From NCBI GenBank assembly GCA_964644035.1, contig CAZXUH010000002.1, forward strand, positions 756 through 64,755: 64,000 nucleotides of DNA, given 5' to 3'. The number at the start of each line of letters is the position of its first letter. The first letter of the stretch is position 1. The position numbers were made by a program, and so were the translations under genes. A model generated the notes under the pieces. It had not been told where the DNA came from. It worked only from the letters and a program-made list of their open reading frames with translations, and did no database searches. This DNA is from an uncultured Candidatus Saccharibacteria bacterium (GTDB lineage Bacteria > Patescibacteriota > Minisyncoccia > Phycocordibacterales > DAORIS01). This document shows, in pieces, positions 7,023 to 26,696 of the stretch.

Positions 7023-7990
7023 AAAGGATTTTTACCGCCGCGAACTTCAAAGTGTAGATGTATACCAGTTGCTTTACCTGATGCGCCCATTTTACCTACT
7101 TGCTGTCCCTGAACAACCGTTTCACCCACACCAACAGATACTTCGGAGAGGTGGGCATAGAGAGTTTGCATACCATTTGGATGACTTATAACAACGTAGC
7201 TTCCGTAACCACCATTCCAACCGGCGCTTCTACTGATTACTACAGTTCCGCCGGCAGCCGCTACAATCGGAGCACCCATCTTACTTGCAAGATCAACGCC
7301 ATTGTAACCGTGTATACCCTGAGTACGTCGAGCACCAGAAACTGGATTGATAAAGTATCCTGTTGAATCTTTGCCGGCGCTTGCAGAGATAAGAACACCG
7401 TTGGCGCCACCAGATTTGACCGTTGAAGTTGTTTTTACAGGTGCTGAAAGGACCAATTCACCATCAGGAATAATGACTGTATCACCAACTGCGAGAGTAG
7501 CATTGTCGGCAAGGGCATTGAAAGACCTGATTTCGGCTTCATCGGCCTTGTATTTCTTGGCAATAGTCTGAATCGTATCGCCTTTCTTAACAATATGCGA
7601 AACGCCGCTCACTGGAAGAATGACGAGAGTCTGGCCAGGCTTGATCCTATCCTTGGTAGTGAGATTGTTGGACCACATGACGGTATTGACCGACACTTGG
7701 AACATTTCCGCGATCTGGCTGAGGGTATCGCCTTCGCGAACAACGTATGTACTAATGAGTTGGCTATGCTTCTGAGAAACATCCTCCGTAGGGACAGCCA
7801 AAGCATCGTGATCAACTACAAGTTCATCCTGAAGAGTGTAGTTACCAGCCACCAAAGCCTCCATAGTCTGAGAATTTTGCCGTGGAACCTCTGCCTTTAC
7901 CTTTGTAGTCACAAAAAAGCTCTTTACCGTCGTAAAAATGTTTGCCTGAGCTCTCAAATACGGGAAAAAGACCAGCACAAAAAAACACAC
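7019..7990 (-). CDS. LysM-domain M23 peptidase (peptidoglycan endopeptidase)
   Basis: Two LysM-like repeats (VREGDTLSQIAEMF, VKKGDTIQTIAKKY) and an M23 catalytic region ...HGYNGVDL...GIHLHFEVR. Confidence 0.85.
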   Translation of the reverse strand: MCFFVLVFFPYLRAQANIFTTVKSFFVTTKVKAEVPRQNSQTMEALVAGNYTLQDELVVDHDALAVPTEDVSQKHSQLISTYVVREGDTLSQIAEMFQVSVNTVMWSNNLTTKDRIKPGQTLVILPVSGVSHIVKKGDTIQTIAKKYKADEAEIRSFNALADNATLAVGDTVIIPDGELVLSAPVKTTSTVKSGGANGVLISASAGKDSTGYFINPVSGARRTQGIHGYNGVDLASKMGAPIVAAAGGTVVISRSAGWNGGYGSYVVISHPNGMQTLYAHLSEVSVGVGETVVQGQQVGKMGASGKATGIHLHFEVRGGKNPF

Positions 7991-10252: not shown

Positions 10253-11065
10253 ATGGAACAAAAAATAATCGCTAAAAAATCTCTCGGTCAAAATTTTCTA
10301 AAGTGCGGTTGGGCACTTTCTGCTATTGTCTCTTCAGCCAAAATAGAATCCAATGAAACCGTGCTCGAAATCGGACCGGGCAAAGGAATTCTTACTGCAC
10401 TCTTGCTCAAAAAGAGCGCTCATGTACTTGCAGTAGAAAAAGACGATAGAATGATTCCATATCTACAAGAAAAATTTTCTCAGGAAATATCCAACGGCAA
10501 ACTAGAAATCATTCATGGCGACATACTCGAGGAGCATATTCAGAAAGATGTGTTTGAACGCCTTGAAAAAACGGGGGACTATAAGCTGATTGCAAATATA
10601 CCGTATTACATTACAGGCCAACTTATAGAGAACTTCTTGTCAGCACAGCAGCAACCAAAAAAAATGGTGTTGATGCTGCAAAAAGAAGTCACCAAAAGAA
10701 TTGTCTCGACTGACAAAAAAGAAAGTATATTGTCGATTTCCGTCAAAGCCTACGGCACGCCATGCAAAGTAGCGGACGTGCCACGCTCTTGTTTCTCTCC
10801 AAGTCCCAATGTTGACTCGGCTATTTTGGAAGTAAGTGACATTTCAAAAAAGTTTTTCGGCGATGTTACTGAAGATTACTTTTTTAATGTACTAAAGACA
10901 GGTTTTGCTCATAAAAGAAAAATTTTAAGTGGAAATCTATCGGAAAAATTTGATAAATCTCATATCCAAGAAATATTTACCTCACTCGGCCTAGAAAAGA
11001 ATATCCGCGCAGAAAATATACCTGTTGAAATGTGGTTCAAAATCGCTGAGGGTTTGAAAAACTAA
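10253..11065 (+). CDS. rsmA: 16S rRNA (adenine1518/1519-N6)-dimethyltransferase
   Basis: LGQNFL N-terminal motif and the SAM-binding EIGPGKGILT. 270 aa. Confidence 0.9.
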   Translation: MEQKIIAKKSLGQNFLKCGWALSAIVSSAKIESNETVLEIGPGKGILTALLLKKSAHVLAVEKDDRMIPYLQEKFSQEISNGKLEIIHGDILEEHIQKDVFERLEKTGDYKLIANIPYYITGQLIENFLSAQQQPKKMVLMLQKEVTKRIVSTDKKESILSISVKAYGTPCKVADVPRSCFSPSPNVDSAILEVSDISKKFFGDVTEDYFFNVLKTGFAHKRKILSGNLSEKFDKSHIQEIFTSLGLEKNIRAENIPVEMWFKIAEGLKN

Positions 11066-11448
11066 AGAGAAGTACCTGTTGTAGGACCAATCATACCGAG
11101 ATTGGGTAGAGGGAAGCAGAAAAATGCAGCGTACATCCAGCACATCTGCACGCCTGGTATAACGCTTCCAAGAACATGGGCACCGGGATGAGGAATATAA
11201 TGAGCATATCCGATCGTTCCCACCACCCATGACAAACTACCAGCTCCGATTGGTCGAGGAAATGAAAATTTACCAAAATATATTTGATGAACAGCACCTC
11301 CAGTGCACGTGCAGGGTATATGAGCAACATCTAGACCTCCAAAAGGTACGAGTGGAGGAACAAGAGCTTGAGTTGTTAGTGGAAAGAATGAAAAAACCAA
11401 CACATCAAGCAGCACGAGTGAGAAGAAAAATATTTTTGAGTGTTTCAT
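11062..11448 (-). CDS. hypothetical small secreted Gly/Pro-rich protein (uncertain)
   Basis: 128-aa ORF with a signal-peptide-like N-terminus. Its start sits 1 nt after the stop of the upstream gene (TAA-T-ATG). No family recognised and competing overlapping ORFs exist. Confidence 0.3.
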   Translation of the reverse strand: MKHSKIFFFSLVLLDVLVFSFFPLTTQALVPPLVPFGGLDVAHIPCTCTGGAVHQIYFGKFSFPRPIGAGSLSWVVGTIGYAHYIPHPGAHVLGSVIPGVQMCWMYAAFFCFPLPNLGMIGPTTGTSL

Positions 11449-11449
11449 A

Positions 11450-12541
11450 TTACTTTACTATTATAAATGATGCTGTCGGTGTCATTCCATTTTCATTTCC
11501 GACCATAATCGGCATCGAAAACTTCGTGCCCGGATCTTTAACCATTACATCTTTGATGATATTTTGATACTGGAACGATGACAATGAAAAAGTAAGTGTC
11601 TTGCCGTCCAAAGATGCGACACCCTCAAGAATACCTATTGAAGTAGCAATAGTATTGTTTGAATTGAAACCAGTACCAGTCAGAGTGACTGTGTCCTGAA
11701 GGGTTGCTTCGGCAGGTGAGACTGTGTTTATGACTGGAACATTTGCTGCGGTATTACCAACAGTAATTTTTGCGAGCGATCCAGATACTTCTGACTTACC
11801 TCGCACATTTGAAACACCAATTTCATAGGTGCCCAGTGAAATACTACTTGGCACCGTGACTTTAATCGTAGTGCCATCTGCCGAGCTAATATTTTCCAAT
11901 GTCGCAGCATTGCCTATATATACAGTATTGCCTGTCGGCATGAAACCTGTACCCTGTATTGTTATTGTTGTACTTGCCACAAGTTTATAAGGCGTCACAC
12001 CATATACTTTTACTTTCTGAAGAAAGTTTCTTACTTCAATCGGCAAAAGAGGAGAATCAAAATATCCTTCATTGGAATTTGAAGTAGAGACAACTTGATT
12101 GTTTATCGTTTGATTATTTGCCGTCATATTACTTGCAGGGTTGGAACTTACCTCAATAATTTGATTTGAATTATTCTGGACAGTTTTTGCATTCAATTCA
12201 TTGAGCTTTATGCGAGTGAGAGAACCGACAAATCCCGTGCCGCTTGTAAGGCTAGCTTTGACCAAAATATCTTGTCTATACGTTTCTTGAAAACGAATCA
12301 CTGCATTTTTAGTGAGATTGCCAAAATAAGTAGTTTCATTGCCAGGAGAACCAGGACCAATGCTTGCAATTTTGCTATTAGCCTGAGAATTGAGAAGTTT
12401 TTGCAGAGCAAGCACGTCAGAACCCTCATCACCGACAGTAAGATTGCGACTAAAAGTGAAATTGTTCTGAGCAAAAGCAGTCAAAAACACGCTAGTGAAG
12501 CAAAAAATAGAAACGAAACCTGCTAAAATTATTTTTTTCAT
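11450..12541 (-). CDS. secreted protein with peptidoglycan-binding-like domain and Ig/TIG-like repeats
   Basis: Signal peptide, then ...LTVGDEGSDVLALQKLLNSQ... (PG_binding_1-like), then T/S-rich beta-repeat regions. Confidence 0.5.
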   Translation of the reverse strand: MKKIILAGFVSIFCFTSVFLTAFAQNNFTFSRNLTVGDEGSDVLALQKLLNSQANSKIASIGPGSPGNETTYFGNLTKNAVIRFQETYRQDILVKASLTSGTGFVGSLTRIKLNELNAKTVQNNSNQIIEVSSNPASNMTANNQTINNQVVSTSNSNEGYFDSPLLPIEVRNFLQKVKVYGVTPYKLVASTTITIQGTGFMPTGNTVYIGNAATLENISSADGTTIKVTVPSSISLGTYEIGVSNVRGKSEVSGSLAKITVGNTAANVPVINTVSPAEATLQDTVTLTGTGFNSNNTIATSIGILEGVASLDGKTLTFSLSSFQYQNIIKDVMVKDPGTKFSMPIMVGNENGMTPTASFIIVK

Positions 12542-12589: not shown

Positions 12590-13420
12590 TTGGTATATCA
12601 TTGTCCTATGAAGAGATTATTTAAAGGTCCTATTTTTATTGCACTGACCATTGTCTTTAGTCTCTTAGCAATTGTCGGTGCTTACCGCTATAGACACTCT
12701 CAAGAAGCGACGGTATATAGCTCTTCTACAGGATCTACGACCCCTTTGACGATTTTGGCTGAAAATATATCGGACGAAGACTGGCAGGAGCTCCTGAATA
12801 GGGTGGGTGAGACACAAAATAGCACAAATACGGCTCCATTGAGCAATTCTGACGTGATTTCTAGGGAAATATTTGCCCAATTTGTCTATACCAAGCAGCA
12901 AGGCAAGAATATTACCCCTGAACAAGCCAAACTTATTGCCAATGACCTTATAAAATATGCCGATTCTATCGATGTACCCCTCAAACAGTACACCCCTGCG
13001 GACATAAAAGTGGTCAAAAACCCCACTCAAAATGACATTGTGACCTACAGAAACCAGCTCAACAGCATCGTATTTTCAGAAAAACAGGAAATTGGCAATG
13101 AATTGGTCATTATGCAGGAGGCAGTGGTAGACAACAACCTCGAAAATATGTCCAAACTGAAAGGAATTTCTGATTTTTACAATAAAATTGCCTTTCAACT
13201 CCTCGCTGTAAGCGCTCCAGCACCTATTGCGCAAGAGCATCTCGATATAGTCAACCTTTATTTGCGAATTGCCAAAGACGTAAAGTCATTCGACAAACTT
13301 AAAAACGATCCTATCATCGCTGCGAAGAATTTTGGAGACTACAGTAATGCCGATTTGGCCCTTTTTAAGACCTTTCAAAAAATCATGGTTTATTTTGAGT
13401 CACAGGGTGTTGATTTCTAA
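12590..13420 (+). CDS. hypothetical membrane-anchored protein
   Basis: 276 aa. The N-terminal TM IFIALTIVFSLLAIVGAY is followed by a soluble domain. It is the first gene of the + strand T4SS-like block. Confidence 0.45.
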   Translation: MVYHCPMKRLFKGPIFIALTIVFSLLAIVGAYRYRHSQEATVYSSSTGSTTPLTILAENISDEDWQELLNRVGETQNSTNTAPLSNSDVISREIFAQFVYTKQQGKNITPEQAKLIANDLIKYADSIDVPLKQYTPADIKVVKNPTQNDIVTYRNQLNSIVFSEKQEIGNELVIMQEAVVDNNLENMSKLKGISDFYNKIAFQLLAVSAPAPIAQEHLDIVNLYLRIAKDVKSFDKLKNDPIIAAKNFGDYSNADLALFKTFQKIMVYFESQGVDF

Positions 13421-13455: not shown

Positions 13456-15105
13456 ATGACATCTTGGAAATTGAAATCCATCTCCTTTGTTTTGTTTGTT
13501 GCCATAATCGCACCATCATTAGTTTGGATTTTTGCTCCGAAGACACAAGTTGAGGCTGCAATTTTTAATTGTGCACCTTCCGTTGCAGAGCAGGTAACAC
13601 GAACGGGGGCACAAACCGCTGAAAATGCTGCCTACAGCACACTTGGAGTTCCGGTTGATATTGGACCAGTTTATAAAACAAGTCTTACACAAGGTGCAGG
13701 TGCAGCAGTAAGTGATAATCGAAAGACGAGCTGCATGGATGGTATTGGTTGGATGCTCGCAAAAATTGCCGTCGCATATATTACACAGTCAGTAGTGCAA
13801 TGGATCAATAGTGGCTTCAATGGATCACCAACATTCATCACTGATCCAAAAGGATTCATACTTAAAGTGGCCGACGAGCAATTTGCAAATATTATGACCA
13901 CGCTATTTCCATCGACCAGTGGTCTTGCGGATCTGGTCTGTAGTCCATTTAGTTTGGATATAAAATTAAAGTTGGCACTCAAATTTAATTTCAATTATAA
14001 ACGTCTCAACATACCAAGCGGCTGTAGCTTGACCGATATTAGTAACAATATCGGAGGAGCTGTCGGGGGAGCACAACAAAGTATTACAGAACAGTACAAT
14101 GATTTTACCAGTGGAAATTTCAGTAATGGCGGATGGGATCGATGGTATGAGATTACACAAAATTCCGACAACAATAAATACGGCGCAGAGCTCAACACAG
14201 ATATTGCAGTCACCGCTGCAATAGAAGACGCACAAGGACAAGAAGTTGATTTACTCAATTCAAACAATTGGTTTAAATCACTCACAAAAGGAGAGGGGAA
14301 TATCACAGGTGCTATAAACAGTATTATTACTCCTGGAAAACAAATCCAAGGAATGCTCTCAAACAGTATCCAAGATCCGACAGATGAACTAAAACTTGCA
14401 GACAGTATTGATGAAATTGTTGGTGCGCTTATCCAACAATTGATTGGTCAGGCAATCGGCGATGGTGGTATTGCTGGACTCAGCCAAACAGATACAAGTG
14501 AGGGTCAAACATCAAGCTATGCTGATCAAATACTTGAGGAACGTAATGCAATGGAAGAAGAGAATACAAATGATCAAAATACTATTCCTCAGCCACCTGG
14601 CTTACCTACATCAACACCTCCAATATCGGGTGGCGGACAACCAAATACTCCGACAAACGTCGCTCTCAACAAACGTCCTCAGCAATCGAGCAACTATGCT
14701 GGTTCGACCGGAGCTATAAAAGCCGTGGATGGAATGACCCAAGATGTTCCTGTACAGGATTTTTATGCTATTACCAATAGCCAAGTACAAGCATGGTGGC
14801 AAGTTGATCTCGAACAAAGTGAAGACATTGGTAGCATTGAAGTTTGGCCTCGAGGTGATGCGACCGATCCGCTCAACAACTTCTACGTATTGGTTTCCGA
14901 TCAACCAATATCAGGAAGTCTCGATCAGATTATTGCTGACAGTAGTGTGAGGAAGTTTAGAATTTCTGGAGGTATTGCAAATCCTCCTCAGGTCATCAAT
15001 GTCAATGGAATGGGTCGATATGTTCGCGTGCAACGTGCTGATACCACTCCAAAATTTCTTGAGCTTTTGGAAGTGAGAGTAATTTCAAGACCAACTGAAA
15101 ATTAG
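13456..15105 (+). CDS. secreted protein with C-terminal F5/8 type C (discoidin) domain
   Basis: Signal peptide. The C-terminal ~140 aa (...AWWQVDLEQSEDIGSIEVWPRGD...RYVRVQRAD...LELLEVRV) fit the discoidin/F5_F8_type_C pattern. Confidence 0.55.
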   Translation: MTSWKLKSISFVLFVAIIAPSLVWIFAPKTQVEAAIFNCAPSVAEQVTRTGAQTAENAAYSTLGVPVDIGPVYKTSLTQGAGAAVSDNRKTSCMDGIGWMLAKIAVAYITQSVVQWINSGFNGSPTFITDPKGFILKVADEQFANIMTTLFPSTSGLADLVCSPFSLDIKLKLALKFNFNYKRLNIPSGCSLTDISNNIGGAVGGAQQSITEQYNDFTSGNFSNGGWDRWYEITQNSDNNKYGAELNTDIAVTAAIEDAQGQEVDLLNSNNWFKSLTKGEGNITGAINSIITPGKQIQGMLSNSIQDPTDELKLADSIDEIVGALIQQLIGQAIGDGGIAGLSQTDTSEGQTSSYADQILEERNAMEEENTNDQNTIPQPPGLPTSTPPISGGGQPNTPTNVALNKRPQQSSNYAGSTGAIKAVDGMTQDVPVQDFYAITNSQVQAWWQVDLEQSEDIGSIEVWPRGDATDPLNNFYVLVSDQPISGSLDQIIADSSVRKFRISGGIANPPQVINVNGMGRYVRVQRADTTPKFLELLEVRVISRPTEN

Positions 15106-15113
15106 AAAAGTAT

Positions 15114-17801
15114 ATGAGCAAGATGTATAAGAAAAAATACGTATTCCTTACTGCCCTGAGCGTAGTTTTGATTGTTTTTCTTATTCCAAAAGCAGCTCAT
15201 GCTGATATTTTTGATATTGCACTGGATTCTGCTCTCAATGCAGGCATAGGATTGATCCGAGGACTGATGATTGGAATTCTTGCTCTTTTCAGCTGGATAC
15301 TTTTTGCAGTAGGTAGCCTGCTCGATCTCACGGTGAAGTACACAATTATTGAGATGGGTGAATTTGTGAATGGTGTTAATTCGATCAGCATTGCCTGGAA
15401 ATTCTTCCGAGACATAGCAAATATGTTCTTTATTTTTGTTCTGACATATGCCGGAATCACCACTATTTTGGGTGTACAAAGATCAGATTGGAAAACTATT
15501 CTTCGCAACATTGTCATTGCTGGCCTGCTCATAAACTTTAGCCTTTTCTTCACAAAAATTCCTATCGACATTTCAAATATTATTTCTATCCAGCTCTACA
15601 AGGCTATGACAAGCAACGTCACTTCGACCGTTGCAGGACAACAAGTCTCTGGTATGGCAGTGGAATTCATGAACCACCTAAAAGTTCAGACTATTTATAG
15701 ACCTTCAGGGGAGGGGGTCATTGACGCAACAGAAGTAAATCTTGTTGACCAACTCAGCACTATTCTTATCTCATCGATCTTTGGTATCACGATTATACTC
15801 ATTACAGCGTGTGTCTTTTTGGCAATTGCCGCTATGCTCCTTCATCGCTTTGTAAAACTCATATCACTAATGATTCTTTCTCCTTTGTACTTCTTAGGCA
15901 TGATTTTGCCAAGTGCCAAGGAATACGGAGGAAGGTGGAAACAAGACCTGATAAGTCAGTGTATATTTCCCGTAGTATTGTTTGGTCTTCTCTATGTAGT
16001 AGTACTATTCCTACGAACAGGCACATTGAGCAAATTCTCAGCTGGAACTTTTGCAGAAGGACTCAATGGCTCAGGAACAATCATTGCAAATCTTTTGATC
16101 AATTACGGATTGATCATGGCTATGATTGTCGGATCACTTACAGCAGCACAAAAAGCTGGTGGTGAGGGAGGTAGATTTATGGACAATAGAATTAAGAGTT
16201 TGCAAAAATTCCCAGGCAGATTGCTATCATCAACTGCAAATACAGCAGCGAGAACAGCATCATGGGCAGGTGGTGCTGCCGTGCGCCAAGTAGTACGTGG
16301 TGGAGATACAGTTGCTGAGAAATCTGGCGCAAAGAAATGGGCAACGACCAGACTCAAGGCTGGAGCTGCTACTCAAAGCGAAGATCTCAAACTTAAAGGC
16401 AATAACACTGTCACAAAAATTGCTGGCGGTGCAATAAACATTGCAACAGGACTTACTGGTATACGCCTTCTTGCAGCAAAAGCAACACGAGGAGCTTCAA
16501 GTGCCTCGCTCAAAGCAGCTGGCAACTTTGCAAACAATGCAAGCTTCGATGCAATGGGTGTAGAGAAGAGAGGTTTTGCTAAAATCGATTCAGATGAAAG
16601 AGAAAAACTTACAGCTTCAAAAGTTTCTTATGAAGAACAAGTTAGAAAAAATGAATTCAAGAAAGCTCAGACAGAATTTAAAGACGTTTCTAAAATTAAA
16701 GTTAGAACAAATGATGATGGTAGAAACTTTGTCGACATTGGCGACGGCGTAGAAGTAGAAATGAGAGATGATGAGAGAGTTCGAGGTGTCGACATGCTAC
16801 TTAGCGAAGTTAAGAAAATTAGAAAACAATACACTGGTCTTCTTAAAAATCGCCGACCTAAGGAACTCGATAAGGTTAAATTCAACGATATTAAAGCTGC
16901 AGCAGATATTCTTACTGCCGAGCAGTTTACATATCTCGTTGGCAAAGAAAGCAAACTTACTGATCAAGAGAAGGATACACTCACCACCGAAAGAGTTAGT
17001 ATGCCAAAAGTTCTCATGGAAAGACTTGAGAGTGCTGAGAGGGAATTTGAGGAAGAAAACGATCCAGTTCAGAAAGCTGCTCGGGAAAATGCACTTAAGG
17101 CTGCACAGAAAAAGGTCAACGACTCACTCAAGAAACTTACCGACAAAGAAATGGAAGTTATTGCACCTCATTTCTTCGATACCAATAAAGACAGGACGTC
17201 TCTTCTTGAAACATTTGCAAAAAGCATCAGTCAAAGTACCGCCGACAAGCTCAAAAAACTTGATAAGCTTGGCGATGATGACAAACTACTTATCAATAAG
17301 ACCCGCAAGGCCGTCTTCCAAGCACCTCTCAATGCCTTTAGGACTGCATCTGCAACAGTTAATCGCCTACGAATGGCTGGTACAAGCAGCGGAACTGAAT
17401 TTGATAGAGCCCAAGCTGAAGCAAACAGGCAAGAAAAGAAGCTTAAGAGCGCATTTGCAAGATCATCGGGAGAGCAGATCGCAAAAATGGGTTCAGAATT
17501 TGTCACTGATCCTAAAATCATTGAACTTCTTGATGGTAAGCACTTGAAGAAGCTTGTGGAACTTGCCGAGGATATGGATAGCGTAACGATTAACGGTCAG
17601 GAAAGAAATCCATTTGAATATATTGCTGAAGAGAAAATAAGAATGCTTGAAGAACATGCAGCAGGAAATCGAGAAGAAAAACCAAAAGGTATAGACTTCA
17701 TCCTTAGGAACGAGAACTCAGGCATATTTGATGTCGATGCAGATGAAGTCAGAACCACGATTCAAAATATAAGGTCAACAACACGAACACAACAACCATA
17801 A
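15114..17801 (+). CDS. VirB6/TrbL-like polytopic membrane protein with long charged C-terminal extension
   Basis: Signal peptide, then at least 6 predicted TM helices over ~330 aa, then a ~500-aa K/E/A-rich coiled-coil-like tail. Its position immediately upstream of the VirB3-like and VirB4 genes supports the call. Confidence 0.5.
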   Translation: MSKMYKKKYVFLTALSVVLIVFLIPKAAHADIFDIALDSALNAGIGLIRGLMIGILALFSWILFAVGSLLDLTVKYTIIEMGEFVNGVNSISIAWKFFRDIANMFFIFVLTYAGITTILGVQRSDWKTILRNIVIAGLLINFSLFFTKIPIDISNIISIQLYKAMTSNVTSTVAGQQVSGMAVEFMNHLKVQTIYRPSGEGVIDATEVNLVDQLSTILISSIFGITIILITACVFLAIAAMLLHRFVKLISLMILSPLYFLGMILPSAKEYGGRWKQDLISQCIFPVVLFGLLYVVVLFLRTGTLSKFSAGTFAEGLNGSGTIIANLLINYGLIMAMIVGSLTAAQKAGGEGGRFMDNRIKSLQKFPGRLLSSTANTAARTASWAGGAAVRQVVRGGDTVAEKSGAKKWATTRLKAGAATQSEDLKLKGNNTVTKIAGGAINIATGLTGIRLLAAKATRGASSASLKAAGNFANNASFDAMGVEKRGFAKIDSDEREKLTASKVSYEEQVRKNEFKKAQTEFKDVSKIKVRTNDDGRNFVDIGDGVEVEMRDDERVRGVDMLLSEVKKIRKQYTGLLKNRRPKELDKVKFNDIKAAADILTAEQFTYLVGKESKLTDQEKDTLTTERVSMPKVLMERLESAEREFEEENDPVQKAARENALKAAQKKVNDSLKKLTDKEMEVIAPHFFDTNKDRTSLLETFAKSISQSTADKLKKLDKLGDDDKLLINKTRKAVFQAPLNAFRTASATVNRLRMAGTSSGTEFDRAQAEANRQEKKLKSAFARSSGEQIAKMGSEFVTDPKIIELLDGKHLKKLVELAEDMDSVTINGQERNPFEYIAEEKIRMLEEHAAGNREEKPKGIDFILRNENSGIFDVDADEVRTTIQNIRSTTRTQQP

Positions 17802-17802: not shown

Positions 17803-18546
17803 ATGATTGCATTTTCAAAAGCAGATAAAATAAAAGCCTACAGACTTCTTTCACCGCAAGAAAAGAATACGGTGTTTTCTCAAACAGTTGGCGAGAAAAT
17901 AGATCTTATCTCAATGAAGTATGGATTGGATCCTGCAAAGTCCAAACGTTTCAAATACAGTTTAGGGTTGTTTCTTCTTGGTTTGATTACTAAAAATGAC
18001 ATTCCTCAAGTAATCAATGAGCGCTTGCCCGAACTACCAAATAACGAGGTTATGGAGGATATTAAGAGCATCTTTTTCCCAGAAGTAGAAAAAGTTATTC
18101 GAGAGTACAAACCCGATCCCGAGGAAGAAGAGCCCAACGCCAAGGACGAACCTCTTACTGAAGAACAAAAACAGATGGACGCTCAACTTGAGTCAGAACC
18201 TGAAGAAGTAAGTAGCGAAGAAGAGGGTATAGACCGTGAAGATCTTCTCAAAGCAATTGAGGATCCTGAAGAAAAAAATCTTCAAAAAAGTGCTGCGGCT
18301 TCACAGGATAAATATAGAGAACCTATCGAAACACCAAAACCAGTATCGACTGGCAATCCGGTAGAAGATCGTCTCAAAGGTATCGTATTTACTCCAAAAG
18401 AAACAAAACAAGTAGTGGTAGAAGCACCAAAACCTCAGCCTTTGCCAAGTAAACCTGTTGCAAAACCAAATACATCTATACCTCCGCTTCAGCAAAGCGT
18501 CCCTAAGTATCAAGGAAACGATCCGTACAGAGAACCTCTTTCGTAA
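17803..18546 (+). CDS. hypothetical acidic, Pro-rich protein
   Basis: 247 aa. The central region is rich in E/D/P (EEEEPNAKDEPLTEEQ...). No family recognised. Confidence 0.4.
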   Translation: MIAFSKADKIKAYRLLSPQEKNTVFSQTVGEKIDLISMKYGLDPAKSKRFKYSLGLFLLGLITKNDIPQVINERLPELPNNEVMEDIKSIFFPEVEKVIREYKPDPEEEEPNAKDEPLTEEQKQMDAQLESEPEEVSSEEEGIDREDLLKAIEDPEEKNLQKSAAASQDKYREPIETPKPVSTGNPVEDRLKGIVFTPKETKQVVVEAPKPQPLPSKPVAKPNTSIPPLQQSVPKYQGNDPYREPLS

Positions 18547-18652: not shown

Positions 18653-19108
18653 GTGCATAATATAGTCATGCAATTTCAGGTTCCTCAATTTATCGAAGTA
18701 GAAGATAAGATTTTCGGACCACTGACAATCCGCCAGTTCATCTATATTGCCGGCGGAGCAGGTATGGGCTATATCTGCTATGCTCTCTTGCCCTTGATCT
18801 TGGCTATACCTGCTATCGGCGCTGTCGGCACACTTACATTTCTATTGGCTTTTTATAAGTACAATAACCGTCCTTTTATCTATTTTGTCGAATCGGCTTT
18901 TAAATACAGGACCAATAATCGGCTCTATATATGGAAAAAGGATCAGCCTACGCCAAAAGCTCAGGAGGAAAAGAAAAAAGCTGCAGATCAACCAAAACTT
19001 TTTGTCCCAAAGCTCTCAGATAGCAAACTCAAAGACCTAACTTGGAGTCTTGATATCCGTGAAAGTCAAAATCCGCTGACAGGTAAAGATAACGAGACGA
19101 ATACATAA
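18653..19108 (+). CDS. VirB3/PrgI-like small membrane protein (T4SS)
   Basis: 151 aa with two adjacent TM helices near the N-terminus. It is encoded directly upstream of VirB4, the conserved VirB3 position. Confidence 0.45.
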   Translation: MHNIVMQFQVPQFIEVEDKIFGPLTIRQFIYIAGGAGMGYICYALLPLILAIPAIGAVGTLTFLLAFYKYNNRPFIYFVESAFKYRTNNRLYIWKKDQPTPKAQEEKKKAADQPKLFVPKLSDSKLKDLTWSLDIRESQNPLTGKDNETNT

Positions 19109-19154: not shown

Positions 19155-19796
19155 ATGGCACCTATATCAGAAAGCGCAAAGGCAACGCAAGATTTCGTAC
19201 CGATTCAGGAGGTTCGAGACGGTGTTATTGTACTCAAAGATGGCTCGCTACGAGCTGTAGTACTTGTTTCATCGATCAACTTCGACCTCAAATCAGAAGA
19301 TGAACAGAAATCCATCCTTTTTCAATTCCAAAACTTCCTCAACTCCCTCGATTTCTCTATTCAAATGTTCATCCAGTCGAGAAAGCTCGATATACGCCCA
19401 TATATAGCGCTTTTACAGGGCAGACTCAAGGAGCAAACCAATGATCTTATGAAGGTTCAGGTGCAAGAATACATAGAATTCATCAAGAAATTCACCGATT
19501 CGAGTAATATCATGTCAAAAAGCTTCTTTATTGTTGTTTCCTATGCTCCTGCAACACTGACAATAAAAAGAAATCCTCTTTCAAAACTGTTTGGTAAGGG
19601 TGAATCGACACAAACTGTCGAAAATACAAAGTTTGAAGAAGCACGAAGCCAGCTCGAAGAGCGTGTATCGGTCATAGAGCAGGGTCTTGTACGCACCGGA
19701 GTCAGAGCAGCACGCTTGGGCACAGAAGAAGTGGTCGAACTCTTCTATAAGATGTTCAATCCTGGCGACACCGAGAAGCCGATTATTCAATTATAA
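19155..19796 (+). CDS. virB4: VirB4-family protein, N-terminal domain fragment (Gram-positive TcpF/Orf16/PrgJ-type N-terminus)
   Basis: ...FVPIQEVRDGVIVLKDGSLRAVVLVSSINFDLKSEDEQKSILFQFQNFLNSLDFSIQMFIQ... resembles the N-terminal ~200 aa of monoderm VirB4 ATPases, from my recollection of Tn916 Orf16-like proteins. It stops 8 nt before the ATPase ORF in another frame. Confidence 0.6.
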   Translation: MAPISESAKATQDFVPIQEVRDGVIVLKDGSLRAVVLVSSINFDLKSEDEQKSILFQFQNFLNSLDFSIQMFIQSRKLDIRPYIALLQGRLKEQTNDLMKVQVQEYIEFIKKFTDSSNIMSKSFFIVVSYAPATLTIKRNPLSKLFGKGESTQTVENTKFEEARSQLEERVSVIEQGLVRTGVRAARLGTEEVVELFYKMFNPGDTEKPIIQL

Positions 19797-19803: not shown

Positions 19804-21642
19804 ATGTCATTACTAGGAGGACTTTTCGGCAAAAAAGAAGAAGCAACACCGGCAAATACATCTATTCTGCCTCAACAGATTTATGAAGCTGGAGTACTCG
19901 AGCTCAAGGATATTATTGCTCCCTCTGCACTTAAAATAGGCCCTAGAAGCCTCTCTCTGGGAGACAAGATTCTTCGATCATTCTTTGTTATTTCATATCC
20001 TCGCTATCTTACAGAGAGCTGGTTTTCTCCTATCATCAACCTCGACAAGGTATTTGATGTTTCAATATTCATTCATCCAGTAGATACTGCAAGAGCACTC
20101 AAGCAATTTCAGAAAAAAGTAGCTGAAGTGCTTAGTCAGATCAGTGCTCGTGAAGAAAAAGGCTTGGTACGCGATCCTAAACTCGATACAGCCTATCAAG
20201 ACCTCGAATCATTGAGAGACAATCTCATGCAAGCTCAGGAAAAACTCTTTGATGTTGGTCTTTATATAACACTCTACGGAGAAAGCGAAGAAGAACTCGA
20301 TAAAATCGAATCTGAAATCAAATCCATCCTCGAAGCAAAGCTTATTTATATAAAACCTTCTCTTTTCCAACAAGAACAAGGCTTCAGAAGCACGTTGCCA
20401 ATCCAAGACGACCAATTGGCCGTGCATTCCAAACTCAATTCTTCACCTCTTTCTAGTCTTTTTCCTTTCGTCTCATTTGACCTGACATCCGATAGGGGAA
20501 TTCTCTACGGCATCAATAGACACAATTCAAGTTTGGTGCTTTTCGATCGCTTCTCACTCGAAAACTACAACTCTCTTATCTTTGCAAAATCCGGTTCTGG
20601 TAAATCATATACAACCAAACTCGAAATCCTACGCTCACTCATGTTTGATACTGACGTTATTGTTATTGACCCAGAAAGAGAATACGAGTACATGGCTCAA
20701 GCAACAGGTGGAAGATATTTCAATATCTCTCTCAATTCAGACAACCATATCAATCCTTTCGATTTGCCTGTGCCCAATGAAGATGAGACTCCAGCAAGCG
20801 TCTTACGTTCTCAAATCATCAACCTTGTCGGACTATTTCGTATCATGATGGGAGGTATTACACCCGAAGAAGATGCAATTATTGACCGAGCCATCACTGA
20901 AACATATGCTCTCAAAGATATTACTCCTGAATCTGATTTTTCATCGATCGAAGCACCTCTTCTTTCTGACTTTGAACTTGTCCTTGCTGGTATGGAAGGA
21001 GGGGAATCACTTGCACAACGCCTTACAAAATACACTCGTGGTACATGGGCAGGATTTATAAACAGACCATCGAACGTTGATATCAATAAAAAGTTTGTCG
21101 TCTTTTCTCTCCGAGATATGGAAGACGAACTCAAGCCTGTCGGTATGTATATCGTCATGCATTATATTTGGAATGCAATCAGGAGAAATCTCAAGAAGCG
21201 CTTGCTTGTAATCGACGAAGCGTGGTGGATGATGAAGTCCGAAGATACGGCCTCATTCCTACTCTCTTTGGCAAAACGTGGACGCAAATACTATCTCGGT
21301 CTTGCAACAATTACCCAAGACGTCGACGACTTTATGCGTTCTCCATATGGTCAACCGATCATCACCAACTCTTCGATTCAGCTTCTCTTGAAGCAATCAC
21401 CATCTTCTATCGACAGACTGCAGCAAGTATTCAATCTTACTGACGAAGAAAAATATCTATTGCTCGAATCAGGAGTAGGAGAAGGTATATTCTTTGCTGG
21501 TCTCAAGCACGTGGCTATAAAAGTTATTGCATCATATACAGAAGATCAGATTATCACTTCTGATCCATCGCAGATTCTCGCTATCAAGGAAGCCAGAAGG
21601 GAACTTGAACAAGCTGGCGGCGAGACACCTGCGCAACAATGA
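19804..21642 (+). CDS. virB4: VirB4/TrbE/CagE-family T4SS ATPase (central and C-terminal parts)
   Basis: CagE_TrbE_VirB-like middle region, Walker A FAKSGSGKSY, Walker B LLVIDEAWWMM, and a C-terminal ...LATITQDVDDF... region. The start is taken at MSLLGG, the first ATG after the upstream stop. Confidence 0.85.
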   Translation: MSLLGGLFGKKEEATPANTSILPQQIYEAGVLELKDIIAPSALKIGPRSLSLGDKILRSFFVISYPRYLTESWFSPIINLDKVFDVSIFIHPVDTARALKQFQKKVAEVLSQISAREEKGLVRDPKLDTAYQDLESLRDNLMQAQEKLFDVGLYITLYGESEEELDKIESEIKSILEAKLIYIKPSLFQQEQGFRSTLPIQDDQLAVHSKLNSSPLSSLFPFVSFDLTSDRGILYGINRHNSSLVLFDRFSLENYNSLIFAKSGSGKSYTTKLEILRSLMFDTDVIVIDPEREYEYMAQATGGRYFNISLNSDNHINPFDLPVPNEDETPASVLRSQIINLVGLFRIMMGGITPEEDAIIDRAITETYALKDITPESDFSSIEAPLLSDFELVLAGMEGGESLAQRLTKYTRGTWAGFINRPSNVDINKKFVVFSLRDMEDELKPVGMYIVMHYIWNAIRRNLKKRLLVIDEAWWMMKSEDTASFLLSLAKRGRKYYLGLATITQDVDDFMRSPYGQPIITNSSIQLLLKQSPSSIDRLQQVFNLTDEEKYLLLESGVGEGIFFAGLKHVAIKVIASYTEDQIITSDPSQILAIKEARRELEQAGGETPAQQ

Positions 21643-22343
21643 AGCGTCATGCAAAAAAAATAGGAATATTTACTTGTATAGCCCTAATAATTGCTGCTGG
21701 ATTTTTTGACCTTATACAATTTTTACTCGATCTTGTGGTGGCAGGTTTGATTGCGGATACTATTTTAGCCTTACTGTTCTTTATACCTCTCAATTTATGG
21801 CTTTTACTGACAGGTAGACTCAATGGAAAAGTGGCTGCCAATTCATTGATAGCTTTTATTATAGGTCTCATACCAGTCATAAACGCTCTTCCAGAGTGTT
21901 TGTATGCAGTGGTAATGATTATTATTTTTAATAATCTAAAAGAAATCCTTCAGGTTGTAACAAAGATGGCTCCGTATATGAAAACTGCAGCAAAATTTGT
22001 TCCACCCTTGCAAGCCCCAGTAAAAACAATCGAGGTTGTACAGAAAATAGACAAAGCAACAGGAGGAAATATAGCTAAGAAGATAGCAAAAGAAACTCAA
22101 ACAGGCGACCAGACGCTCGATTTTAAGTCATTTGATGGCTCAACACAGGCTCAAAACTATACAAATGGCGTTGCAAACCAAGTTCTTGTCATAAAAAAGA
22201 AGGGTGGTTTGACTGAAAATACCCTTGATCTGCAAAATAAAATGCAGTCTGCAGCTGACAGACCAAGTGGAAATCTTCCCCAAATTTCAAATAGGAAAGG
22301 TGTTACAATAGAGGGTGCAAATGAAAAAAGGCCTATTGCATAA
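21639..22343 (+). CDS. hypothetical T4SS-associated membrane protein
   Basis: 234 aa. Three or four N-terminal TM helices and a hydrophilic C-terminus. The start ATGA overlaps the VirB4 stop, indicating translational coupling. Confidence 0.45.
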   Translation: MKRHAKKIGIFTCIALIIAAGFFDLIQFLLDLVVAGLIADTILALLFFIPLNLWLLLTGRLNGKVAANSLIAFIIGLIPVINALPECLYAVVMIIIFNNLKEILQVVTKMAPYMKTAAKFVPPLQAPVKTIEVVQKIDKATGGNIAKKIAKETQTGDQTLDFKSFDGSTQAQNYTNGVANQVLVIKKKGGLTENTLDLQNKMQSAADRPSGNLPQISNRKGVTIEGANEKRPIA

Positions 22344-23313
22344 CATCGCTATTTTCACCACTCTCTTGATAGCGGTTTTTGTCTGTGGCATAACTTCTAC
22401 TCATGCAGAAGTGACCAATCCTTCTGACGTAACATCTATTATCTCCACTGTCAGCCCTGAGTATCCGAAAGCGTTTGATGAAGTTACTATTTCTATCAAG
22501 AGTTATGCTATGGACCTACAACGATCACTTATACGTTGGTATGTCGATGGAAAACTACTGTCAGAAAAGACTGCACTGACACAACTATCAGTACAAGCAG
22601 GGAATTATGGCACCACAAAGACAGTAAAAATACAGGTTATTGCTGCCGATGGTAGAGTAGCTGAAAAATCAATCTTTATAACACCTTCGGATTTGAGCCT
22701 TGTATGGCAAGCTGATACGTATACCCCTCCTTTTTATAAAGGAAAGCGTCTCTATAGCGCTAGCTCAGACATACTCATGATGGCAATACCAAGTGGTAAG
22801 TACGATTCAGATAAAATTATCTTTACATGGAAACAAGATGCCGACGTCATACCAAATAGTGGGGGGCTTGGAAAAAACACTATTACTATTCCAGGAACAC
22901 TTGTCACCAGAGAGAAAATGATCATTGTAGAAGCAATTTCTGTCGATGGTACCTATCATGCACGTCAGATAGTTACTCTGTCTCCAATTTTTACAAAAGT
23001 ATTGATGTACGAAAACAATCCACTGTTTGGAGTATGGTATGAAAACGCTTTGGTAAAAAACCAAACTATCGCATCAGCAGAATTCAAAGTGGCAGCATAT
23101 CCATTCTTTTTCTCTACAAAAAGCAGATTTTTGGATGATGTTCAGTATCTCTGGAGCGTAAACGGTGCAGGAGCAACGACAGCCTCTGGTAAAAGTTCTA
23201 TAACTCTCCAAAGGGATCAGAGTATTTCCAAAGCAGGTCTAGGTGTTGAGGCTCGGCATAAAAGCAAAATACTGCAAGATGCAAAAACATCAGTAAATCT
23301 AAACTTTAAATAA
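22315..23313 (+). CDS. secreted protein with internal ~100-aa beta-rich repeats
   Basis: Signal peptide (IAIFTTLLIAVFVCGITSTHA) and repeated Ig-like modules (...IRWYVDGKLL..., ...IIFTWKQDADV..., ...VQYLWSVNGAG...). Confidence 0.45.
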   Translation: MQMKKGLLHNIAIFTTLLIAVFVCGITSTHAEVTNPSDVTSIISTVSPEYPKAFDEVTISIKSYAMDLQRSLIRWYVDGKLLSEKTALTQLSVQAGNYGTTKTVKIQVIAADGRVAEKSIFITPSDLSLVWQADTYTPPFYKGKRLYSASSDILMMAIPSGKYDSDKIIFTWKQDADVIPNSGGLGKNTITIPGTLVTREKMIIVEAISVDGTYHARQIVTLSPIFTKVLMYENNPLFGVWYENALVKNQTIASAEFKVAAYPFFFSTKSRFLDDVQYLWSVNGAGATTASGKSSITLQRDQSISKAGLGVEARHKSKILQDAKTSVNLNFK

Positions 23314-23314
23314 T

Positions 23315-24244
23315 ATGACCCAAACTATTTCAACTTTGTATTTTAAAAAAATAATTTCACTACTAGTCTTTTTAACAGCTATTATCGCTGGTTTTTCTTT
23401 TTTAACTTCACTGACGCATGCTGTAGAGATAGACACCAGTTACGATCCACTTGTTAAGATTGAAGGTGTCACCGATGCCCAAACAACCGATGCAGATATT
23501 GGTTCTTATGTATCAGGTGCATATAAATGGACGATTTCGCTCGCAATTGCCTTGGCGGTGATCATGTTTACCTTCTACGCTTTTCAATACCTACTTTCCG
23601 AATCTACTATTACGAGCAAAGCTCATGCAAAAGAGGGGATGAAGAATGTTATTATCGGTCTTTTACTTATTTTTGCAGCATATCTCGTACTCCAGACAAT
23701 CAACCCTCAACTTGTAGCATTCAATTTAACCTTAGATTTGCCCGAAGCTACTTCGGTTTCAGAATCAGATAATGGTTGTGCTGGAGCAGATATAAAACCA
23801 ACTGGTGTAGGAGTTTATTACATTACAAATATAGAATGCCGAAAAGCTATTCCAGGCAGTGATCAGTTCGTTACTACTCAAGCAACGCGTTACAACGTGT
23901 ACAGTGGCTCTATTAATAGATGCCAGCAAGATGTGAGGGATGGGAATCTAGGTAACAATGTTGTCGGATGTGTAATATACAGCTCCAATTGGATTATTCG
24001 CCAAAGAATACAACTAACTGCCTCTCAAGAAGGTGGTGCTGACTACTCTGAATCCACATACTATCCTTCTGATCTAAGTAAGGGCTGGAGTACGGAGGGA
24101 GAGTGCCAAGCTCAAATTCCAAACTACGGTAAAACCGATATACCTGCATACTGTGCTGAAGAAAGAGCGGGGGAATGGGAATTTTTTGGTTGCTCTGTTA
24201 TAAAAGAATGTCATCGATACGACGGTAATATCACTACTGAATAA
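23315..24244 (+). CDS. VirB2/TrbC-like pilin-topology protein fused to a Cys-rich C-terminal domain
   Basis: Signal peptide, a ~40-aa spacer, then two TM helices (ISLAIALAVIMFTFYAFQYL / VIIGLLLIFAAYLVLQTI) as in T4SS pilins. The C-terminal ~170 aa carry 9 Cys. Confidence 0.45.
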   Translation: MTQTISTLYFKKIISLLVFLTAIIAGFSFLTSLTHAVEIDTSYDPLVKIEGVTDAQTTDADIGSYVSGAYKWTISLAIALAVIMFTFYAFQYLLSESTITSKAHAKEGMKNVIIGLLLIFAAYLVLQTINPQLVAFNLTLDLPEATSVSESDNGCAGADIKPTGVGVYYITNIECRKAIPGSDQFVTTQATRYNVYSGSINRCQQDVRDGNLGNNVVGCVIYSSNWIIRQRIQLTASQEGGADYSESTYYPSDLSKGWSTEGECQAQIPNYGKTDIPAYCAEERAGEWEFFGCSVIKECHRYDGNITTE

Positions 24245-24250
24245 ACAATT

Positions 24251-25555
24251 ATGCTATCAAAAAAAACACTTCTCCTATTTCTAGTTCTCGTCCTGCTTGC
24301 AGTCGGAGCAGCGTTTTATTTTGTATCAGTAAATAAGCAGGGTGGAACGGTTCTTAATAGCGTTAGAAACCTTCTTCCTTTTGGCAGCAACGATATTTCT
24401 TCTGGCAGCATAGGAACTCCCTCGGATAATATTCCGGGTGGAACAGAGGACGAACCTATTGTTGTTAATACAAATACCGATGCACCAGTACCGGTCTTTA
24501 GAAAAATTGCAGATGGACCAGTATCTGGCTTCACAGTATTTACTAGACAACGCACTGAAATTCGTGAAGGTAAGAAAGTAACGATTACTGAAACACCTAT
24601 TAGATACATTGAGCGAAAAAACGGCAATGTCTTTGAAACATTCTCAACATCGACACGAACAAATCGTCTTACCAACACTACCTATCCACGTATTCAGGAA
24701 GCATTCTTTACCAATACAGGAAATTCTCTTGTTATCAGAAGCCTTGGTGACACAGATGAAATAAAAACATATCTTGCTGATATTATTTTGCCAGAAACAA
24801 CTTCTACTTCTACGGTTTTTGATGAAGAATCACTTGGATCTCTCAAGGGCTTCTATATTAAGGACGATGTTTCTTTTGTAGACATTTCTCCTGATACCAA
24901 AACAATACTTCTTGCTACAGAAGACGTATCAGGTACCTCTATTCAGACTATAGATACAAAAGGTGGTGGTACAAAAAATATATTTAGCTCAAGACTAGGG
25001 GAATGGCTCGTACAGTGGTATAGCGCCGACACAATCGCCCTTACATCTAAACCTTCTTCTGGTGTTAATGGTCTCACCATGCTTCAGAATATTAGAAATA
25101 GCACATCTGAGAAACCAGTTACCAATGTCCCTGGCCTCACTTCTCTCGTCAATTCTAAGGGCGATAAAATTCTATTCTCACAAGCCCAGAACAAAGGCTT
25201 CGCACTTGGATATTATGATAAAAAAACCGGTCTAAAGACCCAAGCAGACAGACCAACCCTTCCAGAAAAATGCGTCTGGTCAAAGAAACAAACAAATATC
25301 GTATACTGTCTTGTGCCAAACATAGTCAACAGTGGAACATATCCGGATGATTGGTATCAGGGTACTATTAGTTTTACTGACAGCATCTGGAAACTAGACA
25401 CAACTTCAAATTCTATCTCTTCTCTCTATGATCCTGCAGATACGGACAACGCTGAAATAGACGGTATTAGACCAGCACTTTCTCCAAACGAAGATTATCT
25501 TATCTTTATGAATAAAAAAGACGGTTCACTCTGGTCACTCAAACTCGAAATCTAG
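24251..25555 (+). CDS. secreted/membrane-anchored protein with beta-propeller-like (TolB/PD40-like) C-terminal region
   Basis: N-terminal TM (LLLFLVLVLLAVGAAFYFV). C-terminal repeats such as ...KGDKILFSQ..., ...NIVYCL..., ...YLIFMNKKDGSLWSL... resemble PD40/WD-like blades. Confidence 0.4.
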   Translation: MLSKKTLLLFLVLVLLAVGAAFYFVSVNKQGGTVLNSVRNLLPFGSNDISSGSIGTPSDNIPGGTEDEPIVVNTNTDAPVPVFRKIADGPVSGFTVFTRQRTEIREGKKVTITETPIRYIERKNGNVFETFSTSTRTNRLTNTTYPRIQEAFFTNTGNSLVIRSLGDTDEIKTYLADIILPETTSTSTVFDEESLGSLKGFYIKDDVSFVDISPDTKTILLATEDVSGTSIQTIDTKGGGTKNIFSSRLGEWLVQWYSADTIALTSKPSSGVNGLTMLQNIRNSTSEKPVTNVPGLTSLVNSKGDKILFSQAQNKGFALGYYDKKTGLKTQADRPTLPEKCVWSKKQTNIVYCLVPNIVNSGTYPDDWYQGTISFTDSIWKLDTTSNSISSLYDPADTDNAEIDGIRPALSPNEDYLIFMNKKDGSLWSLKLEI

Positions 25556-26316
25556 TTCTTAACTGTATTCGATTCTACAATTACTACTGGTTCTGTAAGC
25601 TTTCGGCGATGGCGTCGTAGAAGAAGCTCTTGGAAGACCATAAAAATGTTGCTGGTGATGAAATAAAGAGCAATAAAGGCAGGTAGTCTGAATGAAATGA
25701 AGAAAATCATTATCGGAAGGATGTATTTGATCTGAACACTCATACTGCGAGCAATATCATCTTGGAAAGATGGTTTTACACCTGGCTTTTTTGGCTCTAC
25801 CGTCATCATTGGCTGGAACTGACCCTGAATAAACTGCGTAATAGCTGCTATAACAGCAGTTAGAATGCTTTTCTGAGTTATATCGAGCAAACCTAGGAAT
25901 GTTGTGCTGACGAACAATGTAGGATGAATAAATGGGTAGAGTAAACTTTCATTGATCTGAGTCAGTGTACCACTTGAGAAGATGTGGTAGAGAGAAATAA
26001 TAATAGGAAGCTGAATAAGAAGCACAAAGAAGCTAGAGAGAGGATTGATTTTATTAGCTTTGTAGAGTTTGAGTATTGCCTGACCCTGCTCCTTAACATC
26101 CTTTATCTCATTTTTGATCTTTTTGAGCTCTGGATCTACCTCTTTGAGCTTAATCTGTGTCAACAAAGCCTTCTTTTGGAGAGGATAGAGGGCAAACTTC
26201 ACAATAACTGTGAAAAGAACTACCGCCATACCTGCATCTATCCCTGGAATAGCCAAAATAAGAACAAAGGCATTGTAAAGCGGTATATAGAATATCTGTT
26301 TGATTATATTAAACAT
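25552..26316 (-). CDS. yidC: membrane protein insertase YidC/Oxa1 (short monoderm type)
   Basis: 254 aa. ...LYPLQKKALLTQIKLKEVDPELKKIKNEIKD...KINPLSSFFVLLIQLPIIISLY... is typical of YidC. Confidence 0.85.
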   Translation of the reverse strand: MFNIIKQIFYIPLYNAFVLILAIPGIDAGMAVVLFTVIVKFALYPLQKKALLTQIKLKEVDPELKKIKNEIKDVKEQGQAILKLYKANKINPLSSFFVLLIQLPIIISLYHIFSSGTLTQINESLLYPFIHPTLFVSTTFLGLLDITQKSILTAVIAAITQFIQGQFQPMMTVEPKKPGVKPSFQDDIARSMSVQIKYILPIMIFFISFRLPAFIALYFITSNIFMVFQELLLRRHRRKLTEPVVIVESNTVKN

Positions 26317-26318
26317 CG

Positions 26319-26666
26319 TTAGATTCTAGCTTTTTTAAGCAGAAAGTCTATTTCTTCCTTCAACTGAGCTAGTCTGACTGTAGAAATGGACTTTTGAATG
26401 AAAAACACAAAAGTATAGGGCTTAGTGAGATCCTTACCTAGTATATTTTTGATGATTGGATAGACTCTACGTCTTGACCGATTCCTCAAAACTGCTGTCT
26501 TCTCTATTTTTTTAGACACTACAACAGAAAATTTTGATTTTGGGAAAACAGCCTCGGAATTCCTTGTTATTTTTAGTGAGATATGATCAGAAGAAAAATG
26601 ATTACCTTTCTGAACTTGAAGGATTCGATGGGTGCGAGCATCAATACGATGACTCTTGGGGAACAT
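26319..26666 (-). CDS. rnpA: ribonuclease P protein component
   Basis: 115 aa, a basic protein lying between rpmH and yidC. MFPKSHRIDARTHRILQ... matches the RnpA family. Confidence 0.8.
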   Translation of the reverse strand: MFPKSHRIDARTHRILQVQKGNHFSSDHISLKITRNSEAVFPKSKFSVVVSKKIEKTAVLRNRSRRRVYPIIKNILGKDLTKPYTFVFFIQKSISTVRLAQLKEEIDFLLKKARI

Positions 26667-26696
26667 AGAGGATTATTTTGTCAAAAAAAAGACAGT

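Follow-up and report, generated by a model that had tools for sequence, protein, structure and literature searches.

Two adjacent genes, here referred to as open reading frame (ORF) A and ORF B, are the subject of this analysis, and are located in a type IV secretion system (T4SS) gene cluster within a 64,000-nucleotide (nt) stretch of contig CAZXUH010000002.1 (GenBank assembly GCA_964644035.1; uncultured Candidatus Saccharibacteria bacterium), which in its full length is termed the window below. ORF A (13456..15105) encodes a protein of 549 amino acids (aa), while ORF B (15114..17801) encodes one of 895 aa. Both are located on the + strand, as are all features given below unless stated otherwise; they lie 8 nt apart, and their products are identical in gene calls on several independent assemblies. 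An earlier note, made from the sequence alone, had described the pair as a secreted discoidin-domain protein followed by a VirB6-like protein with a giant charged tail, and had read the two as a host-surface recognition unit; both ORFs were confirmed as real at these coordinates, while the interpretation was partly supported, as set out below.

ORF A was found to consist of a signal peptide, a helical N-domain, a Pro/Thr/Gly linker and a C-terminal domain of the discoidin/F-type-lectin-like type. Its N-terminal hydrophobic helix (residues 1–34, 13456..13557) ends in ...KTQVEA/A, is consistent with a Sec signal peptide and can be aligned with those of homologous proteins, and a hydrophobicity scan of ORF A revealed no membrane segments beyond it. 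The conserved N-domain, as delimited by family alignments (residues ~60–345, 13633..14490), is characterized by an invariant W-I-N-S-G-F motif and by the invariant residues Cys162 and Cys190, as well as by three near-invariant acidic residues, i.e., D140, D316 and E320. No Pfam or NCBIfam model matched residues ~60–345, for which AlphaFold2 (AF2) predicts an all-helical structure at low-to-medium confidence (mean predicted local distance difference test score, pLDDT, of ~60), and a search of PDB sequences with an A-family profile returned coiled-coil noise only (MutS2, Vipp1 and Cag19, at E ≥ 0.04) and no VirB5 chain.

The C-terminal domain (residues ~401–542, 14656..15081) matches PF22633 with 36.3 bits, above the cutoff of 27.8, while PF00754, the F5_F8_type_C model that the earlier note had named, scored 26.6 bits and thus fell narrowly under its cutoff of 28.2. 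The discoidin-type domain on a secreted protein, as described in the earlier note, is confirmed. Its nearest solved relatives by sequence in the PDB are F-type lectins, namely Sm-hPAF/lectinolysin (8.7e-10) and FBP32 (1.5e-8), and the best Foldseek matches, with probabilities of up to 1.00, are fucose-binding modules, discoidin domains and modules of carbohydrate-binding module (CBM) family 32, the nearest folds being 2j1r, 2j22 and 3lei (probability 1.00). In the AF2 model, residues 445–540 adopt a beta-sandwich jelly-roll (pLDDT 65–91). The F-type lectins or fucolectins (AAA, FBP32, the SpGH98 module and lectinolysin), which belong to the galactose-binding-like (discoidin) superfamily, thus provide the top matches in both sequence and fold, and ORF A retains their WWQVDL core and RGD. 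F-type lectins bind fucose through the triad H-X26-R-X-D-X4-R/K. Unlike in these lectins, alignment of ORF A to lectinolysin places Ile at the position of the triad His and Pro at that of the last Arg (the second Arg/Lys), with no basic residue nearby, and motif inspection did not reveal the full triad in any of the discoidin-bearing relatives of ORF A. As both residues are replaced, canonical fucose binding by this domain seems unlikely from its sequence, and, since the triad is incomplete in ORF A and its relatives alike, the domain is called discoidin/F-type-lectin-like only.

ORF B begins with a signal-peptide-like segment, followed by seven hydrophobic helices within a polytopic domain (residues ~35–365, 15216..16208) that AF2 models with a pLDDT above 90 and in which W95, N141, S143 and R245 are invariant. 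As regards its start, Logan gene calls give the 895-aa product from 15114, while the NCBI product is 892 aa long and starts at a second ATG at 15123 (MYKKK...). The protein itself matched no Pfam or NCBIfam family, and VirB6/TrbL models (PF04610 or NCBIfam VirB6) gave no hit to it at E ≤ 0.1; the PF04610 TrbL model was, however, matched by four of 47 ORF B homologues (best 2.6e-6). Furthermore, a phmmer comparison of ORF B with TrwI gave an E value of 0.031, the family profile matched TrwI at 6e-4, and the best three Foldseek hits of ORF B were TrwI chains (probability 0.96–0.99). These separate tests converge on ORF B being VirB6-like, in agreement with its complement of at least five hydrophobic helices, its VirB6 fold and its location beside VirB3 and VirB4 genes, the PrgI, TrsD and VirB4 genes lying 0.9–2 kb downstream.

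The tail of ORF B (residues ~366–895, ~530 aa) bears out the very long charged extension described in the earlier note. It continues the frame of the membrane domain uninterrupted, its codon-position GC content (0.54/0.38/0.32) being of a coding-type pattern, and is rich in K (11.7%), A (10.5%) and E (9.5%), with a net charge of +8. Residues 366–493 (128 aa, 16209..16592) form a basic, Ala/Gly-rich linker predicted to be disordered (AF2 pLDDT 31–38), while residues 617–851 (16962..17666) are modelled as a packed helix bundle (pLDDT 75–93) whose longest helix does not exceed 35 residues, and which is probably alpha-solenoid-like and fast-evolving. The described richness in K, A and E was thus confirmed, but the tail is, on this model, not one long coiled coil. 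Identity to the tails of the two closest homologues is only 24–28%. BLAST comparisons detected no internal repeats in the tail and no relation to the acidic gene downstream, a search of Pfam and NCBIfam returned nothing (DUF1706 at 0.079), and the tail was found to contain neither cysteines nor adhesin-type domains. A tail of 256–622 aa (median 376) and of similar charge is present in all 89 homologues, and is therefore a family trait rather than special to ORF B; the whole VirB6-like protein spans 294–1146 aa (median 678) in 69 complete loci. Under the classical topology the tail is probably cytoplasmic rather than host-facing, because seven helices follow the signal peptide and because the juxtamembrane segment after the last membrane helix is strongly basic (5.75 K+R versus 1.1 D+E per sequence across the family).

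ORF B accordingly fits the recognized category of ‘extended VirB6’ proteins, in which a large hydrophilic domain lies C-terminal to the hydrophobic helices and for which the roles of the hydrophilic extensions are unknown (PMC12857230). The VirB6 paralogues of Rickettsiales and the MPF-FA Orf15-type proteins (700–900 aa; MPF, mating-pair formation) likewise combine at least five hydrophobic helices with a large, partly unstructured hydrophilic C-proximal region (PMC12857230). Unlike these, the ORF B tail is made up of a basic disordered linker and a ~235-aa helical domain, varies from 256 to 622 aa within its family, and has no detectable sequence similarity to theirs.

The distribution of the A family was assessed in a species scan (one genome per species, with a single A N-domain pattern), which found the N-domain to be encoded in 365 species genomes; the 80 of these records that were listed are all of Patescibacteria or of unclassified metagenome-assembled genomes (MAGs). 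An exhaustive profile search returned at least 6,244 cluster representatives (50% identity clusters) at E ≤ 1e-3, and 4,055 at E ≤ 1e-30. In 80 fetched loci, ORFs were called (4,314 in total) and then searched with profiles of the window genes. A VirB6-like gene was found directly 3' of the A homologue in all 74 species-level loci with at least 1.2 kb of sequence downstream of A, at a median gap of 3.5 nt, and the pairing is therefore invariant in these loci. The recurrent gene order is the 270-aa gene, A, VirB6-like, a variable gene, PrgI, TrsD and VirB4, followed by an optional gene, the 330-aa gene, the pilin-like gene and the 434-aa gene; the PrgI/TrsD/VirB4 order recurs in almost all related loci that extend far enough to cover these genes, while in several loci the pilin-like and 434-aa genes are swapped or the pilin-like gene is undetected. 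Named homologues are all from Patescibacteria, including Paceibacterota, Zambryskibacteria, Taylorbacteria and Kaiserbacteria. A Paceibacteria-type cluster was also observed in many MAGs titled ‘uncultured Candidatus Saccharibacteria’ (loci L008, L010, L013 and others), and either these titles are loose labels or the A-VirB6 pair reaches beyond Paceibacteria.

A typical A member is ~500 aa long and consists of the N-domain and a helical C-terminus that ends in conserved cysteines. A discoidin domain was present in three of 77 species representatives of the family, ORF A included, and in ~5 of 115 members examined, in line with the earlier remark that such a domain is uncommon in a T4SS setting, while a few other members carry Ig-like, PKD or Fib_succ_major modules. 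Since the pairing follows the N-domain and the discoidin domain occurs in few members, the N-domain can be regarded, from these family comparisons, as the T4SS-linked part of ORF A and the discoidin module as a rare swap, which in this lineage has taken the place of the helical C-terminus found in most members. The discoidin-bearing ORF A is as such an unusual variant of its family.

It is proposed that the two genes encode adjacent core T4SS components of a Paceibacteria-type Patescibacterium, ORF B being an extended VirB6 and ORF A an adhesin-like protein in the VirB5 slot, a reading to which a probability of roughly 0.55 is assigned. The polytopic domain of ORF B would form the base of the T4SS stalk or its platform in the membrane, while its tail, with basic disordered linker and helical domain, would most likely act in the cytoplasm as a scaffold for docking. 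ORF A, which leaves the cytoplasm through Sec, would take the slot held by VirB5/TrbJ in Gram-negative systems, and its helical N-domain may attach either to the VirB6 assembly or to the VirB2-like pilus, possibly at the pilus tip, so that the C-terminal module would face outward and touch the host cell. In this lineage, a discoidin/F-type-lectin-like domain would stand in place of the helical C-terminus and may bind a surface glycan or lipid, though not canonically fucose. What is shown of this model are the identities of the domains, the VirB6 fold, the unbroken tail and the constant pairing of the genes, while docking of A on B, equivalence to VirB5, binding of a ligand and the membrane side of the tail are inferred.

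Placement of ORF A in the VirB5 slot draws on several comparisons with VirB5 of Agrobacterium fabrum plasmid pTiC58, which served as reference. The order A followed by VirB6 in the 74 loci mirrors that of virB5 and virB6 on pTiC58, and in the R388 system the VirB6 pentamer carries a pentamer of VirB5 (PMC9259494). Several A members begin much like the mature VirB5 N-terminus (AEAQWVVTDPGNIVQSTITAANT as compared to ARAQFVVSDPATEAETLATALETA of A. fabrum VirB5). When a hidden Markov model (HMM) of VirB5 residues 1–60 was searched against the 4,314 ORFs, the best 16 hits were all of the A family (top 8.1e-8), and the best ten were still all of the A family when the signal peptide was left out (top 6.4e-7). 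PF13605 (DUF4141) matches both genuine VirB5 and five of 77 A members, covering residues 6–57 in the member examined. For three A members the sole or best NCBIfam match is TrbJ (8.4e-5, 0.0014 and 0.0078), in each case N-terminal, and true VirB5 scores comparably against the same model (0.0038). As compared to the VirB5/TrbJ/DUF4141 minor pilins, a subset of A shares the signal peptide and the AQ(F/W)VV(S/T)DP...Q...T motif, and the A family is predicted to be helical and is likewise encoded upstream of VirB6; by contrast, the likeness is limited to ~40–70 N-terminal residues, is weak in the family profile and is degenerate in ORF A.

Several observations weigh against this placement, or against parts of the model built on it. 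An hhalign comparison of the A N-domain (residues 1–345) with a Rhizobiales VirB5 alignment gave a probability of 0.25%, i.e., no global homology, and realigned canonical A N-termini, as a family-wide profile, gave against VirB5 P = 0.005 and a probability of 6.7%, too weak for homology, the reversed control giving P = 0.22. The VirB5-like motif is clear only in a subset of A members, and ORF A itself has only a degenerate form of it, shifted to residues 63–72 (LGVPVDIGPV). The N-terminus of an A homologue (locus L026) matched nothing in the PDB, TrwJ and TraC included, and a Foldseek search with the ORF A model returned a fold match for the C-terminal domain but none for the N-domain, the all-helical model of which (pLDDT ~60) is too uncertain for a comparison with the helical bundle of VirB5. 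As to ligand binding, ORF A has kept one of three canonical residues for fucose and lacks the other two, and any ligand of its C-terminal domain is therefore putative. Finally, only two VirB6 helices are inserted in the membrane in R388, most of them lying outside (PMC9259494), and the hydropathy topology, and with it the cytoplasmic placement of the tail, is for this reason not secure. As for the literature, none of the papers searched was found to link VirB5 to the Patescibacteria clade, and the survey of Patescibacteria T4SS reports no adhesins, with VirB5 only in one foreign MPF-T cluster (PMC12102498). In view of the evidence on both sides, that A occupies the VirB5 slot is given about even odds, and is meant as an inference rather than as a claim of family membership.

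The TrwI/VirB6 and TrwJ/VirB5 stalk of R388 (7o3v, 8rt9) and DotA-IcmX of Legionella (9ngy) differ from the present system, which is monoderm and without an outer-membrane core; the partner protein differs as well, since ORF A exceeds VirB5 more than twofold in size, shows no overall similarity to it at the profile level and ends in a binding module that can be swapped.

An alternative explanation, which is considered unlikely, holds that ORF A is an envelope-processing or structural T4SS accessory, i.e., a wall- or glycan-active enzyme or a VirB1- or VirB8-like periplasmic factor, whose lectin domain acts as a CBM for its own or the host wall. F-type lectin and discoidin folds are often CBMs on glycoside hydrolases, and many of the Foldseek matches of ORF A are indeed glycosidase CBM32 modules; the Ig-like, PKD and Fib_succ_major modules of other A members also occur on enzymes, and the near-invariant D140, D316 and E320 of the N-domain would suit such a role. 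Moreover, VirB8 is largely undetected and VirB1 sparse in Patescibacteria (PMC12102498), leaving these slots open, and global homology of A to VirB5 was not found. Against this, ORF A matches none of the hydrolase, VirB1 or VirB8 families of Pfam, NCBIfam or the PDB, the N-terminal motif of the A family is specifically that of VirB5/TrbJ, and the strict adjacency of A is to VirB6, not to VirB4. In addition, candidate wall enzymes are encoded elsewhere in the window: a LysM-LysM-Peptidase_M23 wall hydrolase (7019-7990, - strand) located 5 kb upstream, which is syntenic in the relative L004 and may be the one to fill the VirB1-like role that published work discusses, and a secreted PG_binding_1 and IPT/TIG protein of 363 aa (11450-12541, - strand) located between ksgA and the T4SS cluster.

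Less probable still is the version of the earlier note in which both proteins form the host-surface recognition unit and the tail of ORF B is an exposed coiled-coil arm. If, as in R388, two helices only were inserted (PMC9259494), the C-terminal extension could emerge outside; the hydrophilic domains of extended VirB6 proteins are of unknown role (PMC12857230), and rapid evolution, as seen in the tail, is common in surfaces that contact a host. However, the seven helices after the signal peptide put the C-terminus inside and the segment that follows them is basic family-wide, the AF2 model shows a disordered linker and a compact helical domain instead of a long coiled coil, and the tail lacks cysteines, repeats and adhesin-type domains. 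A role in host-surface recognition is thus plausible for ORF A only, while the tail of ORF B more likely resides in the cytoplasm. That the tail is an artefact, i.e., a separate gene joined on by a frameshift or mis-fusion, or a read-through into non-coding sequence, as its poor conservation and lack of any domain-family match might suggest, is effectively refuted by its single uninterrupted frame and coding GC pattern (on which the frameshift idea was rejected), the identical 895-aa product called on independent assemblies, the long tails of all 89 homologues and the confidently predicted fold of residues 617–851.

The surrounding genes bear out the earlier statement that this is a T4SS locus. 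Directly upstream lies a conserved gene (12608..13420, from gene call) for a 270-aa protein with an N-terminal transmembrane helix and no Pfam match, which, because it precedes A in most related loci, is probably another uncharacterised T4SS component. Downstream of ORF B, an acidic, poorly conserved 247-aa protein (17803..18546) occupies a slot that is filled in most related loci, and is followed by a PrgI/VirB3-like membrane protein (18668..19108, from gene call; PF12666 at 6.2e-12), a TrsD/VirB4-N-terminal-like protein of 213 aa (19155..19796; NCBIfam TrsD at 1.5e-9, VirB4 N-terminal matches and PF26593) and a 612-aa VirB4 ATPase of the CD1110/MPF-FATA type (19804..21642, start from gene call; NF045971 with 374.9 bits against a cutoff of 325, and PF19044). 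VirB4 is thus split into two genes, a TrsD-like one and the ATPase, and this split is kept in related loci; a mechanical ORF list stretches the ATPase upstream to 19687, overlapping the TrsD-like gene. Four conserved genes of 234, 330, 309 and 434 aa then complete the cluster (21639..25555), in an order kept in related loci. The 309-aa protein (23315-24244) contains a VirB2-type T4SS_pilin domain (PF18895 with 27.5 bits, cutoff 26.6) at residues 69–128; it is far longer than a classical VirB2 pilin, and its relatives elsewhere are between 127 and 402 aa long.

The cluster is directly followed by genes for YidC (- strand), DnaA and DnaN (window 25552-29603), and is therefore origin-adjacent, as reported for Paceibacteria. 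The remainder of the window encodes housekeeping functions (KsgA, UvrD, PBP1, TyrRS, PolA, a Mur ligase and type IV pilus genes), and neither a relaxase nor a coupling protein was found among the large window ORFs scanned, small ORFs not having been scanned exhaustively. A mobile conjugative element was considered and rejected in view of these housekeeping neighbours, the synteny of the cluster in a relative at ~35% identity, and the relaxase that was not found. The cluster is the chromosomal, origin-proximal Patescibacteria T4SS of Quinonero-Coronel et al. 2025 (PMC12102498): like the published, MPF-FATA-related Patescibacteria-clade system (Wang et al. 2023; PMC12102498), it is chromosomal and dnaA-proximal, and it encodes the same monoderm-type VirB4, TrsD, PrgI/VirB3, VirB6 near virB4 and VirB2-like pilin. 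That work contains no description of the A family, which in Paceibacteria always precedes VirB6 (PMC12102498).

Further observations concern the remainder of the window. Between ksgA and the T4SS cluster, a small ORF was noted on the - strand (in 11062-12541), whose 128-aa product has a hydrophobic N-terminus and contains several cysteines. Type IV pilus genes, encoding a PilB-type T2SSE ATPase with MshEN domain and PilM, are located at 35928-37778 (- strand) and 53141-54214 (+ strand), as expected for an epibiont of this group. Near the window end, a large serine recombinase (Resolvase, Recombinase and Zn ribbon; 62020-63615, - strand) lies beside a rise in GC content to 0.47 at 60–62 kb, and the two may mark the edge of an integrated element.

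The Patescibacteria T4SS was essential in the one species tested, and its role has been described as completely unknown (PMC11665869). Taken alone, the present locus adds a further example of a system already known, and its long VirB6 tail, though still unexplained, is likewise a trait described before; both the machine and its extended VirB6 are of known kinds, and what may be new is the A family, which is conserved, modular and paired with VirB6. A more far-reaching proposal, offered tentatively and at somewhat less than even odds, is that the A family, defined by its WINSGF domain, represents the VirB5 equivalent that has been missing from the Patescibacteria T4SS. It would be docked on the extended VirB6 as a protein of the tip or stalk, and its interchangeable C-terminal modules (helical and Cys-capped, discoidin/lectin-like, Ig-like, PKD and Fib_succ_major) would be the receptor-binding determinants that set host choice. 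If this is true, the VirB5-VirB6 stalk principle would extend from Gram-negative machines to a monoderm lineage, and a conserved VirB6 partner with swappable surface-binding modules would provide a testable handle on host recognition by these epibionts.

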